A DNA stretch of 63,262 bases, counting the filler, from Streblomastix strix (Eukaryota): NCBI GenBank assembly GCA_008636045.1. It is 3 parts of 3 records of this genome, joined end to end, with 100 filler letters (N's around TTAATTAATTAA, not from the genome) between each part and the next. Parts side by side here need not be neighbours in the genome. Positions count along the whole stretch, not along the records: positions 21,176 to 42,185 come from SNRW01000401.1; 2 more parts are not named here. The stretch is one strand, 5' to 3'. The position numbers were made by a program, and so were the translations under genes. Below are positions 25,264 to 49,183 of this stretch, piece by piece; position 1 is the first letter of the stretch, and the number at the start of each line of letters is the position of its first letter. The notes beneath the pieces were generated by a model. That model made no database searches. It was not told where the DNA came from and was given only the letters and a program-made list of their open reading frames with translations.

Positions 25264-25808
25264 CTTTTACATAATATTTCCAACTTCATCATTTCAACTA
25301 CAAATCAGATATATTTATATGTGTTTCTTTTACTCTAATTTAATATAAAATTCTAATTCTTTTTATTTTAGTTATTCATTTGCTTCAACAGTATTCTATC
25401 CCATATAAGATATATTTATACAAATTATCCTAACTTTTCCAATAAAATTTTAACAAGTTATGAACAGTATAAATTAGAAAAATGAATCTATTTGTTTGGT
25501 TGGCGATTTCTCTATAAATAAAAGCTCAAACTGTTCGAATACAATTATTTTACACATAAATAATAATAATAAACGAAATATAATAATTTAGTTGCAATTA
25601 ATTTATTATTTGCAGAGTTTGATGATTTAAACTTTAAACATGATTTTTTTTTATCTAAACGTACTCATATTTTAATTTTAATAGTCAATTTTTATTATTA
25701 AATTATACAATTTTATTGTTATTAATATAAGCAATCGCAAACATCTAATAATTATTTTGTTTTTTTACTTTTTTCATTTTCATTTTTTCTTTTTAGTAAA
25801 AAGACAAA

Positions 25809-28800
25809 ATGAATACTTAAAACGATTAAGATTGGCAGATTCCAGTTGAAGATTAATAATTAACAGATATTGTAGAAAACTGTCAACTAGATTCTATACA
25901 TTAATATTTTGAAGAAAGAAGTAGTACATTGAATGAAAGCTAATTTATTAAATGTTTTAAAACAATTCTAGCAGATTATTTATTTGATGAAATGAAATTG
26001 TGATAATATTTCCATTAAATTGATGGTGAGAATTAAAAATCTGGTTTGTTTATTAATAAAGAAATAACATTTATTGCATTTGATGTTTATTTTCCTTTAA
26101 TTAGTTTCATGGAATGATTTCACTCGATATTTTACTTAACAATTTAGACTTCTATCAGGAGAAGAAGATAACAATGTATTATATCATTTTTTTATTTACA
26201 ATATTCTTTCCTTTACGATTATATTCAAAAGGTTGAACCACTTTATGAACCAATAGATGCATCATTTGTGCATGATATAAAGCAAAATGATTTTCACAAA
26301 AATTATATCTCATCATTAAATTATCTTCCACTCTAAAATGTCTTTATCACAACGGGGTATGATTTATGTTTATAATTAGTATATTCATGCTATTTCCTAA
26401 TTTTATTTATTATAGAACAGATGGACTTGCAAAAATATGGTCTGGAGATCTTAGTACTAGTTAAGTAATATGTACTATAGATCATGTCCAATCTTTATAG
26501 ACTTAAGCAACACGAGGTGAAGTAGATATAATTGAATAGATAAAAGCAAATGATGATGAAGAGAGGGCTAAGAATATACGATCATAAATTGGCATCAACT
26601 CTGATTAATATTAAAATGCATCAATATCTATCAATTCATCGAAATAGTAAAATGACAAGAATATTAGCGAATCAATCCCGAAATAAAAATCTCAACAATC
26701 AAATATAGCAATGCATCTAGGACGTCCACGTCCTGGCTAAAATATATCATAAACTGTTGAAAAAGAATAAACTTAAGAAGATACTAAAGACAAAACATAG
26801 AAGAACTTAACATTCGAGAATTATCGACTTAAAAAAGCAAGTTAAACTAAAGATAATCGTATGGCTAATTATGCGAATGCGATTAAAGGAGCATTTGACA
26901 TGAAGGATCATGCAATACTATATAAACTATATGCAGATACACCAGCTACGAGTAATACTATACTTAAGAAATTCTTTTCACCAGGAGTTAATATAAGTCA
27001 TTCAAAAAAATACTCTTTGCCAACTTTTGAATGAAGAGTTGAAGCTGAGCACAATAATCGTGGTTATATAAATACTCCTGCAGATGCTCGGCTTTAATTG
27101 GAAAATAAACGCAAGAGAGAATCAGGAATTATTTCTACTAAGAAAAACGATAATGAATTTTTCAATGAAGAAGTTGAAGATGAAGATTAATTTGATAATA
27201 GAATGCATAATGTTATGATGAATGCTATGAATAGACCTCTTGTAAAAATGCTTACTTAAAAGAAATCAGAAAATTCAATTGCGACACAAAGATTAATTAA
27301 TTCGGCACAGCTAACATTTAGAAATAAAACTTTCCTTTAAAGTTAAACAAATTAACAAAATTATTTAATCAATACGTAATCTCCTTTATATAATTCACGG
27401 ACATCGTTTAACTTTAGATAAAATAGAAATAGTCTAACATCACGTGGTTAAGCTGCTGATAATATTAAAATTAATTAGTAATCAATACCCTAATAAACAA
27501 AATATGTAAAATAACAAATAATACCCATTTCGTAACAAACAAACTCCATTTCATAGTAAAATATCAATATTTCAAATATATCAACTCCAAGTTAACAATA
27601 ATAAATTAATATTTAAATTTCAGATCAAATCTCTGGCATATCCGATGAAAATAGAGAAAATTAAAATAAAATATCTATAAATAACGATGAAATTATATCT
27701 ATTACCAATACGGATAATATAACTTAAAGAACGTTTAATGATAAGCCTTGTATAAAATCGATATTGGACTAATAATCTAGCATTGGACTATCTCCTGGAG
27801 AACCTTCAATTATTTAATCTAAAACAAGTGCATTGATTCAAAATGAAAAAAGATTCCTTAATCGATTAACTAATCATCACATTGTTAAACCACAAAAGAA
27901 AAGTAATTTAGGTAATTAGTATACTCAGAATTAGGGAATGATGATTGAACATGTAACTTCTGACAAGATATGGATTATTTCTGTTGTTGTATTTCCTTCA
28001 AATGGCTGGTTTGGATTAATAAGCAGGTATAATAATGTAATTAATATTGACTATTTCTGAATATATTTTTTTGATTTTCGAATTTAAATTTTATTTAATA
28101 TATTTTGTATATAATTCTTCATTATATTTTCTTTCATTTCTAAATAAGCGATCGATCAATTTCATTTTATTAACCAGATCGCTACTTACCCAAAGGAAGA
28201 TTACGCAATTTGGATTCAATGCCTCAATGTGCTTGTGTGATAGGAAGCAAAGAATCATGGAATAAAAGAGAAATGCTTTTAATAGGTAGAAAAGATGGAG
28301 TAATCGATATTATATCAATTACTGAGGGAATTATGACAATGACAGCAGATCTTTCATCAAGAAAAGATCGAAGTTTATTAAATGCTAAATTGAAAGAGAA
28401 AAATGATTATATAAATTTACCAGATTAAGAAGAAGAAAATATTGATGAAGATGAAAGAAGAAAACGAAGATTGAATGCGATTAAAATTCTAGAAAAAGAA
28501 TAAAGAAAATTAATTGATGAAGAAGAAGAGGATGAAGATGAAGATTAAGATGAAGAACAAAAAGAAAGATAATTGACTCCTTCTTCAAGATATAATGATG
28601 ATAAGACTAATACTTAAATAAAATCTATTAAACATTCAAGTAGTATAATTTTATCACATTCATAAAATAATAATATAGAACAATAATAAATTTAATTTTA
28701 AAAGCATCAATTAAATGATAAAGGGACAAAATTAAAATTAGATATTAACAAAATTTAATCATTAGAAATTTGTCCTCCATCATCATCATCAGAATCTTTA

Positions 28801-31800
28801 TCATCAAATGAATATTTATTATAAAATGAATTTTCTTTCCAAAAATCAAATTCATAATTTCTCCAAAAATCAAATTCATAATTTCTCCAAAAATCAAATT
28901 CATAATTTCTCCAAAAATCAAATTCATAATTTCTCCAAAAACAAACATTGAGTAGTAAGCGAAAGAGATGGAAATGGATGTTATTTAATGAAGATATATA
29001 GAAGACAATTATATTCACACCTCGTGTATTGATGAAATTTAATTAGCAAAACAAAATAAAAGCTCGAGTAAATAGTAGAAATGATAATAAAAAGCGTCAA
29101 ATTAAAGCATATAATCTCATTTCTGGCATGAATGCAGATGAAACTAAAGAACTTGAAAAATATAATGATGAAGATCGAGATATGATAATGAAGGAATAAT
29201 TGATTCGCCTGAGACATAAAGGTGAAATTAGTGCTCTCCGAGCTCACAATTCAAATATTACTCGTATTATGAATATAATTGAATTAAATTAAGTGCTTAC
29301 TTGTTCATTAGATTCTGTTCTTCGTCTTTGGGATCTTGATCATATGGAAGCAAAATGGACAATGAAAGGAGGTCATAATAACAAAGGAATTACATGTTGC
29401 TGTTGGAGCTCTAATTATAAAGTTGTTGTAAGTGGAGGTATTGATTATAATCTTTGCATATGGGATGCATTACAACACAAAAAAATAGTTATTCTTCATG
29501 GACATACAAGTATTGTAATTGACATTTGTATCGATGACCATTCAGGAATGATAATTTCAGTTGGAAATGATGGAATGATTCGCATTTGGGACTTATTAAC
29601 AAACTTATGTGTCTAGAAACTTAGCTCATATGACATTAGTTGTGGTTTCACTTTCAGAAAGATAAGCTATTTCAAACCATCAGGAGATATACTTCTCGCA
29701 AGTAAGCGTTTAAATGGATGGCGTCATACATCGATGATGGGAAAGAATATTTCAGCTCATAAAGATGATGTTATAATTCTTTTATTCAATCCTGTATTCG
29801 AATAACTGATCAGCATAGACTTACTAAATGTGATTAATGTTTGGGGAGTAAGATCAGGTCGTAATATATTCCGTTTCAAAGCTAAAAGCAGTGGTTCAAT
29901 AACTTGTGCCTGTTTTGATTTGATGGGACGCAAATTATTTACAGGAGATACAAATGGTATTATATAGATGTATAATCCAAGTTAAGGAAAACTTCTGAAG
30001 GAATTCTCATAAAAAGGTGAATAAGCAAGACGTACAACATTGAGTAAAGATATGAATAATAACTCATTGGATAATAATATTGATTAAGAAACCGATTTAA
30101 AATATTCACATACTAGTAATTTTACTGATAAAATAAAAAATGCTTAATCTAAAGTTGATTCAACTGGATTAATTATTTCATTGGGGATTTAAGAAAATAA
30201 AGTTAAGAATTAAGATTCTGATTTAAATAGGAATTAATCAAATGATTATCCGAATCTTAATGTAATTAACCATCTTTGCGTTGGTTCAACGAGATTTGTT
30301 TAAGAATAAATAATGTCTGTTGGATCAAATAAATAAATTAGAGCAATTGACAATGCAAATAATTCAAGTTTTTAAAATTCTTCAGAAAAAGTATTTCATG
30401 GGCCTTATCATTCGTATCATGGATAAAATATACGTTGTGCTGCATTTTAACCACCGGATAATCTTGCTGTATGTGATGATGATGGTAATCTAATTCTTTG
30501 GAATTCAGAAACTGGTTATATAAAATAATCCTTACGTTAAGGTGAAGATTAAAAGTAAGAAAATGATGATAAGAATGGAAATGGTATCATTAATGAAAGA
30601 CGCATCAATGAAAAATAATACTAGAATGATAATTTAAAACCTTCTAAGAAACATATGAGTAAAAGAGAAATATTATTAAATATTAAAAAATAAAGTATGC
30701 AAAAATCACCATAGAATCATTCTCAATTATAAGAGAAATAGAATGCTTTAAAAACAGAAGCAACAAAAAAAGAATCATTGGATATTGAAATGATGTTAAA
30801 TCCCAAAGCCATTGTGATGTAAGTTGTGTTTGTAGCAGAATATCGGGGTCTTCTTCTTACGCACAGTTTAGATGGATGTATAAGAGTCTGGTCTTTAAAA
30901 CATGCAAGTGAACTTCTTTCACTACAAACTGGACATAAACAAGGAATAATGTGTGTAAATTCTTGGAATTAAAATGAAGCTGAAGTACAAAAATGGCATG
31001 ATAGCTATGAATGGGAAAAAGCTTAAGAATAAAGATTACTTGAAAGAAAAGTTGAAGGATTTGATGAAAATTACTTAAAAGAAACAGAAGAATGGGAGAA
31101 TGAATGTTATTTTAATAATCAGATTATTTCATAAATGAAGACAAATAATGGCGAATTACATGAAGATTACATTCAATAATAAAATTAACAGCATGAAAGT
31201 TTGAATTATTGGGTTTAAAATGGAATGGGACCTGGAATTGGAGATGCTGCTACAGCTGCATATTTGGCATTTGCAGGAGCTTATTCAGAAGTTATGATTC
31301 TAGATTTGAAGTAACTGATGTAAATTGCAAGAAAATAGGAGTAAAAACTTAATATTTTTTAATAGAACTTAAATAATGAAGAATAAACAGCAATAGAATC
31401 TCATGGTTCAAATACATTGAAAAGTAGTTAATTGGTTATGAATTCATTTACTGATACAACTAATTTTAGTTCCAAAACTTTGAATGATTAAATTAATCCT
31501 TTGCAGATGCATTTTTCTCAAATATTATTGCACTACTGGCGAGCTAAAACATAGAAAGATCATATATCTTCAATTACGTTTATAAAGATAAATGGATTAT
31601 CAATGTAGAAAAAGAAAATCGAGGAAAGATTAAAAAAGAAAAGTGAAAATAATATTTCTTTAATTCTTAATCAACAAAATCTCATTTCGGAGAATTAATC
31701 TGTAGGCAAGCTTCTACTTCCAGCTCATCTTTGCTATCCACCATCAGCATAAGAAGTCTTTTATGATTAATCTCAAACATTAAGAAATGAAAAAGAGATA

Positions 31801-33735
31801 GAAAAATAATAATAGATGATAGATAAAGAATTTGAAAAATAATTGACATGTCCCATAGATAATAATTCATTATTTTTAGCTTGTGCGATTGATAAATTTA
31901 TTATGCTTTTCTCATTAGATGGAGCACTTCTTGGATCTTATGGCGCTCGAGTTCTTAATAAACCGTCATCCATAAAACAAAAACTTACAAACGATTAAAC
32001 AACTTCTGATAATTCTAAAGAATAAGAAATAAATGAAGCAACAAATAATAATCAGGATAAAGAAGGTGAAAAAATAAAAGAATTATAGAATAATGATATA
32101 AATATGAAACAATTAAATGAAATTTAAGCTCCTACAAATTAAGAAACAATAAATGAAAAGTAGTTACCTAAATCATCTTCACAAATCGACTTAAAACGCA
32201 AAATAAATACTCTTTAAGTGAATCCCAAAGATTATATAGTACAACCACCTCTCTGGTAAGTATTAAATAATATTCCCATAATTCCGTTAGATGATAGAAA
32301 ACTTATTCGTTTAAAGGAAGAAGACCTTCCTGAATATTTATAAACGATCCATATTAGACTTCCACAAAATTAAAATCTAAAGGGATCAACATCATAAGAA
32401 AGATATTTATCAAGGATTAATACCAATCATAGTTTGAATTTAGGAAAGATAAGCAATTATAATACTCTTCGCAAAATGTCATAAACATTAAATTTTCATG
32501 ATTTAAAAGAATAAAACAATATGATACAAAATGATGAAATAGAAACAATTAAAGAAGAAAAGTAAGCGAAGACAAAAAATAAAAATTAAATAAAAGATAC
32601 TAAATTGATTCAAAATAGTAATATTGAAAATAAAGAGAACTAAGATAACATCAAACAGTAAATCCACAATTTAGGCACAATGAAATTGATGGAAAGCAAA
32701 CAATTAGATGAATTTTTTGAAGATAATTCTTTATAGAATCATAAATTGCTCTAACCATAAATTCAGTATAATCGATATGAAAATAATATTAATTTCAAAT
32801 AATAATAGAAATTTGATCCGGCAAAAATAATAGAAAAACGGCGTGAGAAAATGCGTTATATTGTAATAAAATAAAAATTTGATAATGCAACTTTTAATGA
32901 TTAGTAAGATAGAGATTAGTAAAACAATCGTTCCGTATCTCCAATGCCACCTGTTTCTATTTCGAGGAACGAATCACCTGAATTAATCCGATTTCAAAGT
33001 TCTCCATTTTAATTGAATTAATAAACATAATAAAATTTAAACCCATCACTTATTCCGTAAAATTTTCATAAATACATTTAACAGAATCAGAATGTTAGTT
33101 CCTCACAAGATGGAAGTGAAAGTCCAGATTGGGAAAATGATTCAAATTTACTGAAAAGTTTTGATATTAGTTCTTCACTACTAATGCAGAGTGATAGATG
33201 CTTTTAAATACCAAAATCATAGCGATAAGCAGAAGAAGATAGAATGATTCGTGAAAATTAAAGATAATTAAATTCTCATGATTAATCCTAAAATGCATAA
33301 TAAATTACTTAAAAATGGACTCCATAATCTACAAGAAGTATAACTCATTCCTTTTAATCCAAAAAAAATGATAATCCAATTTATGAATAAAAATCCATCA
33401 CACCAGAAAAATAATCAACTTCACCTTCACTTCAATAAAATCTTATTTAGTAGCTCTCATAATTACAACATTTAAGACTTGACTTGAATGATGGTGTATT
33501 ATTAAGCTCTATTCATCATTCTGTTCCTTCTCTTTCTCCAAAATTATAATAGCTATTCATTAAGTAGAAGATCGAAGATCAATATACCAGAATGAATGTA
33601 TTTAAACCAAATAATTCAAATTTGTATGATGAAAATGAATAATTTTCATATATTAATGGGACAAATTAAGAATCGACTGGATAAGAAACTAATATCAGCA
33701 GTTCATCAAACTGGGATCAAAATGAGTAATTCTGA
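25809..33735 (+). CDS. Giant EF-hand-like + WD40 protein (WDR49/WDR64/EFCAB8-type architecture), about 2500 aa, with two internal in-frame TGA
   Basis: ATG 25809. N-terminal LNESQFIKCF...KL*QYFHQIDGENQKSVSWNDF; WD repeats LTCSLDSVLRLWD, SGGIDYNLCIWD, GHTSIVIDI..SVGNDGMIRIWD. Introns at 26044-26104, about 26176-26231, about 26358-26416 and about 28027-28148. Internal TGA at 26001 and 27032; terminal TGA 33733 with a second at 33742. Confidence 0.8.
28839..28941 (+). repeat. Coding 24-nt tandem repeat (CCAAAAATCAAATTCATAATTTCT x4+) encoding QKSNSQFL
   Basis: Four exact copies with no spacers, in frame within the EF-hand/WD40 gene. Confidence 0.9.
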
Positions 33736-33946
33736 AATAGATGATAATGTTTAATAATTGAAATCAACATTATAAAAGTGAATTAAATTTATATCAACTT
33801 TTTATTGTTTATTATTGTTAAATAAAAAACTTTTACTTTTAGAATTATTTATAAAATAAAGTTATTAAGTAAATTGAAATAATCTCATTCTAAGTGTTAA
33901 TTTATAGTAATATTCAAATGAAACTTTGATCTTTTTTGTTGTATCA

Positions 33947-40977: not shown

Positions 40978-41219
40978 AGACGTAATATAATGTTTTTTTC
41001 TTTTTTGTTAATCTTAAGTTATATATATGTATTTTCTTTGATTTCTTATATTTTATAATTATTAATATTTTATTGAACAACTTTTTATCTTTTTTTTCTT
41101 TATTGAGACAAATCTCAACATATTTGATTCATATTTTTATATTTCATCCTATTTTTTCTTTTTTATAATTTTGAATCACGTTAAATGTAGTCTTACACAT
41201 TTTCTGTTTACGATTAATA

Positions 41220-42185
41220 CAGGCGGACAAAATAGGCATAATTTAATAAAAAGTCGCATAATTATGGCAAATTTTGGTTATGGGTTTTTAAAAAATTCAT
41301 TCAAGTAATTTTTATTACAATAATGGTTATGTAAACACGATCGAAAAATTCAAAACAAGGTAGTTAAAGGAGACAACAGGGCTTTGGACTTATGGAACTA
41401 TTAGTTGCTTACCTTTTACTTCATCCAGGCCAAACTACCATCACATCAAGAGAATTTGGGATCACAACACAATAAACTTATACAATTGTACGTTGTTATT
41501 GCAGATAAACAAGTTTTAAGATCGATAGTTTGCGCATGCCGTCGTACATTACTCGGGAAAAGGAATTGCGTTTAGCGCAGAGTATTCATCAGAGGATTCT
41601 AAATCGCGAAGCTCTAACTGTTGATGATGTTCGTTAGGAGATAATAAACCAACATATACAAGAAAGAAGAAATGCTTCTGCAAGAGCAGAAAAATTGGGG
41701 CTGTTTTCATTAGTCAATGAATTTCGTTCATGCCTTCCAGACCCTTCATCGCAGTACGTATTTAACTTCGTTCATAGGCACAACATAACGTTCTCATTGT
41801 AGCAATGTTAAGATTTGAGAAGATTTGAAGCTTCTTTTTCTTCGAATATAGATTAATGGTTCCGTTGTGTGTATTAACCAGCAATTTCAACTGGAGTTAG
41901 AGCTCGTTCAGTCTTTGACATGAATGAGACAAGTGTAAATTGGGACATATAGTAAAGAACAGCAAAATAAGTTGGTACTAGAATAGGAATTTGCATACCT
42001 TCCGATAATGTTGCAGGTCATATATCTATGGTTCCAACTATTTCCCCTGGTTCACATTAACCTCCAACTCTATTTATTATAGGTTTACTGAAGAAGGTTC
42101 CTGATACTCTTCTCCAATTACCGGCTGCAGAGGATTGTTAGTTTGAAGTATCTGACAGCGGATTCATGAATATGCAACTGTTCAG
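41220..42185 (+). mobile_element. pogo/Tc5-like (DDE_1) DNA transposon, left end and 5' part of transposase, truncated by gap
   Basis: TA-CAGGCGGACAAAA candidate terminus at 41218-41232. ORF from ATG 41323 stays open with TAR=Gln to the gap: YVFNFVHRHNITF, VFDMNETSV, HISMVPTISPGSHQPPTLFI, SDSGFMNMQLF. Confidence 0.8.

Positions 42186-42558: not shown

Positions 42559-49183
<6,625 letters not shown>

Follow-up and report, generated by a model that had tools for sequence, protein, structure and literature searches.

The window, i.e. the whole stretch of 63,262 nucleotides analysed here, is composed of three contigs of Streblomastix strix of ~21 kb each, separated by N spacers. Its GC content is ~27%, compared to a published value of 26.6% for this organism (PMC10703272). 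Two long genes of the window contain in-frame TGA codons: one encodes an EF-hand-like/WD40 protein (positions 25809-33735, hereafter the WD40 gene), the other a RecQ/SGS1-like helicase. Their features are collected in Table 1.

The WD40 gene could be modelled with five exons and four GT..AG introns of 56 to 122 nt, the introns being placed from frame and homology. This gives 2,542 codons (CDS of 7,629 nt) without any frameshift, and stops at codons 65, 350 and 2543 only. A first-pass annotation of the sequence had placed the TGA at 26001 in frame in the first exon, within an EF-hand-like helix-loop, and the model agrees with this. Exon 1 aligned to the N-terminal parts of Monocercomonoides and Blattamonas homologues (E-values from 4e-23 to 2e-16); the Pfam EF-hand profile gave no match for this exon. 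The same annotation had counted more than 2000 clean codons with WD repeats after the TGA at 27032. Downstream of this position we found 2,192 more sense codons, running across the intron at 28027-28148, and WD40 domains in exon 5 (Pfam PF00400, E-value 5.9e-24). A 24-nt unit encoding QKSNSQFL is present in exon 5 as four near-perfect in-frame copies (around 28850-28945).

The encoded polypeptide combines an N-terminal EF-hand-like region with WD40 repeats, as in the WDR64/WDR49-like family, whose proteins also have an N-terminal helix-loop followed by WD40 propellers. It differs from them by very long low-complexity insertions, and the likeness considered here is one of domain order. WDR64 was among the names of 8 matches in a first search, with 24-25% identity to WDR64. 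The best 150 HMMER matches included colinear oxymonad homologues from Monocercomonoides, Blattamonas and Streblomastix. For P0134 (Monocercomonoides), P0137 and P0151 (both Blattamonas), the N-terminus and the WD regions were both matched, in order. P0134 matched model residues 15-192, 645-749 and 1035-1477 in one chain, which means that the flanks of both TGA codons belong to one protein in relatives using the standard code. P0151 is named pyrophosphatase PpaX, yet it belongs for the most part to the EF-hand/WD40 family, and may be two gene models merged. The Streblomastix paralogues P0136, P0152, P0258 and P0283 had no usable split site at their ends.

The first-pass annotation had described the WD40 gene as an independent repeat of what was seen in RecQ, a gene on a different contig. 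The RecQ gene has three internal TGA, no frameshift, and its helicase motifs are intact. Its alignment to SGS1 of Blattamonas, 549 columns long and including codon 570, shows 54% identity. Blattamonas was also the closest named relative for RecQ among the matches listed (62%), and has R at codon 570. When short RecQ fragments were used as queries, no protein named as oxymonad was found among the best 120 matches. Altogether, no frameshift was found across the ~4,500 codons of the two genes.

Table 1. Coordinates of the features discussed, along the window.
Feature	Position	Strand	Remarks
Exon 1, WD40 gene	25809..26043	+	ATG at 25809; N-terminal EF-hand-like helix-loop
Internal TGA 1, codon 65	26001..26003	+	context FDEMKL*QYFHQID; homologues K, R, K; TGA kept in relative
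Intron 1	26044..26104	+	GTTTGT..TTAG, 61 nt
Exon 2	26105..26175	+	
Exon 3	26232..26356	+	start of first WD-like repeat
Exon 4	26416..28026	+	long insertion within first propeller
Internal TGA 2, codon 350	27032..27034	+	context PTFE*RVEAE; AGA (Arg) in relative
Exon 5	28149..33735	+	WD40 repeats, low-complexity tail; terminal TGA 33733-33735
RecQ/SGS1-like helicase gene	42845..49183	+	on a separate contig; 1,976 codons in five exons, with three internal TGA
RecQ internal TGA, codon 321	43805..43807	+	low-complexity region, without comparable homologue
RecQ internal TGA, codon 570	44552..44554	+	within helicase core; R in Blattamonas
RecQ internal TGA, codon 1296	47138..47140	+	low-complexity region, without comparable homologue
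TGA after CaaX-like end CCVIL, kinase gene	62384..62386	+	TGA as probable true stop

Codon usage in the window

With the standard code, a single open frame of at least 150 codons is found in the window, while frames reach 1,886 codons when TGA is the only stop. The genes of the window read TAA and TAG as Gln, as in NCBI table 6, and conserved Gln positions of the RecQ motifs carry TAA or TAG. Like the described Streblomastix code, the sequence has TAA/TAG in frame throughout (190 in the WD40 gene) and comes from a termite gut. The closest named homologues of the window proteins, among the matches listed, are from the oxymonads Blattamonas, Monocercomonoides and Streblomastix, for which reason we discarded the idea that the sequence comes from a ciliate. 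Published work has treated Streblomastix as a plain TAR=Gln organism (PMC13002328). In table 6, TGA is a stop only; here, five TGA are internal to two frameshift-free genes, and these genes need TGA as a sense codon. All three canonical stops are thus found in frame, with 159 TAA, 31 TAG and 2 internal TGA in the WD40 gene, next to 27 TGG and 104 ordinary Arg codons, and 3 internal TGA in RecQ. In the two genes taken together, TGA makes up 5 of the 183 Arg-or-TGA codons (~3%), and TGG is used 39 times.

A rate of 5-6 internal TGA per 12-13 thousand codons had been estimated by hand in the first-pass annotation. Our own tally is in line with it, with 5 in 12,458 codons of 11 host genes; this is a rough figure, as 9 of the 11 gene lengths are estimates, and TGA codons outside the two modelled genes were sought by reading open frames, without full gene models. 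One additional, near-terminal candidate had been mentioned in another gene. It could not be identified with certainty; what we did find is a second in-frame TGA three codons past the end of the WD40 gene. The suggested enrichment in long genes fits weakly: the five sites fall in 2 of the 11 genes, with P ~0.04 by length, again with rough lengths.

A decayed retroelement at 7900-11200 (minus strand), judged DIRS-like by eye, has pieces resembling reverse transcriptase and tyrosine recombinase. It contains frame changes and TGA codons and was excluded from the tally; a scan of viral contigs with this element as query gave no match. At 41128-42185 (plus strand) lies an open frame, transposase-like by eye, truncated by the contig end. 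No tRNA gene was found in the window.

TGA at gene ends

All seven gene ends inspected have TGA, followed by sequence of 15-25% GC. One is that of an intron-rich protein kinase gene, CaMKK-like by eye (59839-62386, plus strand), whose product ends in the CaaX-like CCVIL just before the TGA: a CaaX box must be C-terminal. TGA at gene ends therefore likely still terminates translation, as far as sequence comparison can tell. The last internal TGA lies 2,192 codons before the end in the WD40 gene and 680 codons in RecQ, five sites being too few for a trend.

The WD40 gene and its convergent neighbour end ~210 nt apart (33733-33744 on the plus strand, 33949-33944 on the minus strand). In both genes a second in-frame TGA is found soon after the first, three codons on in one case and adjacent in the other. 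These paired TGA may act as backup stops, which a leaky UGA would lead one to expect.

TGA codons in contigs of sequencing runs

We looked at 26001 and 27032 in contigs assembled from sequencing runs. Of the sequence words of the window, a fraction of 0.99 was present in the termite-gut run X1, and 0.06 in run X2, from another study. In X1 contigs, both TGA of the WD40 gene were present, with no other letter at a depth of 24-33. X1 is possibly the source of the assembly, so that this support is not independent. The X1 contigs break at 26001-26030 with a 30-base overlap, and depth goes from 32.7 to 24.4; the graph branch is beside the TGA and not in it.

In X2 we found a diverged relative. Its record 8 (depth 2.5) aligns over 121 bases with 16 differences, i.e. 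~87% identity. It differs at 25992, 25998, 26000 and 26012, and codons 62 and 64 are altered, while 26001-26003 are unchanged: the TGA at 26001 is common to a clearly diverged relative or paralogue. Position 26000 is an A in this relative, so that the GT donor is lost and the TGA retained. Record 13 (130 bases, 22 differences, depth 3.7) has an A at 27032, giving AGA. Among its 10 other listed codon changes, 8 are synonymous, compared to ~20% expected (P 6e-5), and for this reason a synonymous exchange between TGA and AGA at 27032 fits. Over all 27 other listed codon changes of the relative, 13 are synonymous against ~20% expected (P 0.001). The distribution is uneven. Apart from the 8 of 10 in record 13, the stretch downstream of site 2 has 3 synonymous changes out of 5, the one around site 1 has 2 out of 8, and record 12 has 0 out of 4; selection is not evident throughout the aligned stretches. 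The records in question are contigs of 151-223 nt, of depth 2.5-3.7, one per site, they may come from a paralogue, and the differences listed are restricted to those away from contig ends.

On 25800-27400, X2 matches fall into two divergence classes, ~96-98% and ~83-87% alike, which reflect either two related oxymonads or a paralogue. Neither TGA was covered by the closer class (95-99%) among the records listed. Nothing in run X4 aligned to the WD40-gene stretch, and one short piece did in run X3. JGI metagenome scans with the exon-4 protein or with a TAR-bearing RecQ motif gave no match. By exact look-up, one of eight TGA-bounded fragments was found (one Logan ORF), and none of three exon proteins.

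These data bear on the possibility that the TGA codons are true nonsense mutations, favoured at CGA or AGA codons, in recent pseudogenes or null alleles or through amplification or assembly errors, in genes that are not fully translated. The assembly is fragmented, elements decayed by stops and frameshifts exist elsewhere in the window, the sites are clustered in two genes, and some stop codons of protist assemblies may be artefactual, as reported for viral inserts (PMC10120064). CpG is moderately depleted, so that CGA-to-TGA mutation may be favoured: the observed/expected ratio is 0.63 over the whole window and 0.74 for the WD40 gene, but contig 1 reaches 0.97 where it is poor in genes. Against this stand the presence of TGA 1 in a relative with 16 differences over 121 bases, the uniform letters of the source contigs and the synonymous excess downstream of TGA 1. 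Moreover, only ~2.3-2.6% of single-base changes produce TGA: five of them imply ~200 substitutions, with zero frameshifts. We regard nonsense mutation as unlikely.

Splicing out of the TGA codons, through alternative donors or small in-frame introns, was also considered. On paper, in-frame routes skipping the TGA exist for 4 of the 5 sites: 21 donor/acceptor pairs at TGA 1, some with plausible donors (GTACAT at 25924), and GT..AG pairs flanking 27032, 44552 and 47138. Every route at site 1, however, removes 29-75 residues of a region that aligns to homologues. The GT at 26000, singled out earlier as a potential donor, is an unlikely one, given the relative with an A at 26000 and yet a TGA; its sole in-frame use removes 29 residues of the conserved helix-loop. 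The candidates at 27032, 44552 and 47138 have 26-41% GC, compared to 7-18% in the 8 modelled introns, and no in-frame GT..AG pair exists within 150 nt at 43805. Finally, the relative lacks both G26000 and G26997, and its changes there are of the codon type. Splicing is thus very improbable as the explanation.

The first-pass annotation had proposed that TGA is a rare, tolerated codon. The TGA kept in the relative, the exchange with AGA, and the continuity of the domains in standard-code oxymonads all support this.

The residue at internal TGA codons

The amino acid had not been named in the first-pass annotation. Three sites can be compared with homologues, codons 65 and 350 of the WD40 gene and codon 570 of RecQ, and the assignment of a residue rests on them. 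Relatives carry Arg or Lys at all three. At codon 65, the Streblomastix motif L*QYF corresponds to LKMIF, LRLIF and LKTLF, with L64, F68 and D72 invariant: the three oxymonad homologues reaching the N-terminus have K, R and K, and none has W or C (0/3). In the column of RecQ codon 570, the 240 homologues listed have Q (82), R (33), K (25), D (22), E (21), T (15), A (12), S (8), N (8) and others (14), and none has W or C (0/240). When near-identical rows were collapsed to 71, R was the commonest residue (14/71).

No residue other than Arg occurs at every one of the three comparable sites. A naive product of BLOSUM62 scores over these sites with a flat prior, to be taken as a rough guide only, gave R 0.79, K 0.14 and Q 0.03, and R 0.96 among the residues one base away from TGA. 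Of the codons of the two genes that are one base away from TGA, 124 out of 985 are Arg codons, and three Arg-like sites are therefore improbable under random nonsense mutation. Some observations go against Arg: each comparable site is variable, 2 of the 3 homologues have K at codon 65, and the raw count at codon 570 is highest for Q. Homologues show the ancestral codon, and not the residue that is inserted today. The evidence points to Arg rather than Trp or Cys. We conclude that internal UGA is probably translated as Arg while terminal UGA stops translation, i.e. that the code would be ambiguous.

UGA is decoded as Trp in the ambiguous-code ciliates. Read-through by insertion of Trp, Cys or a mixture, tolerated at exposed positions, would agree with the position of the five sites, which are all variable or of low complexity. 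Trp is also the main readthrough residue at UGA in yeast, with 82% (PMC4150775), and the one used in Blastocrithidia (PMC12153298). In Streblomastix, however, the Trp reading of the described ambiguous codes is not found: W and C are missing from all 240 RecQ and 3 WD40 homologues listed, the exchange seen in the relative is with AGA and not TGG, and the 39 TGG codons gave no sign of a TGG/TGA exchange. We hold this reading to be quite unlikely. Near-cognate readthrough of UGA in yeast yields Arg as well as Trp and Cys, the Arg being brought in by tRNA-Arg(UCU) with a first-position mismatch (PMC4150775, PMC5866558).

Two other routes were weighed. Editing of U to C in the mRNA, restoring CGA, would yield the same protein, so that all the evidence for Arg fits it equally. 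Repair of stops by such editing occurs in plant organelles; we know of no nuclear precedent of this sort, and no common sequence or structure was found around the five sites. It is in our opinion a very unlikely explanation. Selenocysteine insertion is the least credible: no Cys is present at the homologous positions (0/240 listed, 0/3), there is no redox motif, and to our knowledge neither the EF-hand/WD40 nor the RecQ family is a selenoprotein family. An Rfam search of the window gave no match, and the sequence past the two gene ends showed no stable fold (z +0.8 and +1.0), with the reservation that divergent SECIS elements can be missed. Monocercomonoides does have the Sec machinery (PMC6759080, PMC10703272).

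Turning back to Arg, no unusual fold of the readthrough stem-loop kind was seen at the five internal sites (z from -1.41 to +0.22), which have no flanking sequence in common. As the sites share no context, fold or Rfam match, they are better accounted for by some general property of translation than by signals of individual genes.

A possible mechanism

At a distance from the mRNA 3′ end, a weakened release factor would compete poorly for UGA, and an Arg tRNA would win. This could be tRNA-Arg(UCG/UCU) reading UGA with a first-position mismatch, by the sort of wobble that lets Gln tRNAs read UAR, or else a tRNA-Arg(UCA) that arose by mutation. Termination at UGA would prevail close to the poly(A) tail. 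Decoding of UGA is probably inefficient or costly, which would keep the codon rare, at 5 in ~12,500 codons. Ciliates whose stops have two meanings are reported to show fewer of these codons than expected near the true stop (PMC11687900), and a termination tied to the 3′ end is consistent with this depletion.

The codons TAA, TAG and TGA would then be decoded as though they were CAA, CAG and CGA. We lean, if slightly, towards the view that Streblomastix-type oxymonads have a nuclear code without a dedicated stop, where UAA and UAG are Gln and UGA is Arg inside genes and stop at their ends, all three stops being read as if their first U were a C, by one first-position wobble, in a process that would still be early and of low frequency. 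Judging by the Gln/Gln/Arg pattern, a single first-position U:G wobble may be able to capture all three stops.

Comparison with known systems

Streblomastix shares with Condylostoma, Karyorelictea, Plagiopyla, Blastocrithidia and Amoebophrya the presence of all three stops in frame, with one that is also used at gene ends (PMC11687900, PMC12153298, PMC6394959). It differs from these hosts in being a metamonad. In Blastocrithidia, UGA is Trp (PMC12153298). UGA is not rare in these hosts, whereas in Streblomastix it is rare and aligns to Arg or Lys. Since the described ambiguous codes read UGA as Trp, a different tRNA route would be needed here.

UGA as Arg has been proposed in organelles, for the Craticula vanensis mitogenome, and suspected for Trentepohliales plastids and Oikopleuridae mitochondria, from alignments without protein data (PMC13672107). 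In Craticula, UGA is organellar, accounts for almost a third of the Arg residues, and has no need for a dual stop role (PMC13672107); in Streblomastix, by contrast, the codon is nuclear, seldom used inside genes, and the one stop that is left. In the insect SPS1-UGA gene, too, a conserved in-frame UGA alternates with Arg codons and Arg is a candidate residue, but a hexanucleotide and a stem-loop signal are present there, in one gene (PMC4561486), compared to five sites in two unrelated genes in Streblomastix, with no shared signal.

Neither internal UGA in oxymonads nor a nuclear UGA=Arg code was found in the literature searched, a set that leaves aside most subscription papers, supplements and the original papers on the Streblomastix code and genome. 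UGA=Arg in Streblomastix is a likely addition to the ambiguous-stop codes. If true, no nuclear UGA=Arg code would precede it, as far as the literature searched shows, and it would be the first stop-less ambiguous code in metamonads. With ~1 dual codon per 2,500 codons, it resembles a code in the 'ambiguous intermediate' stage, a step of code change that is seldom observed. A practical consequence is that annotation of such genomes with table 6 would cut long genes, RecQ among them, into pieces or shorten them, so that gene completeness is understated.
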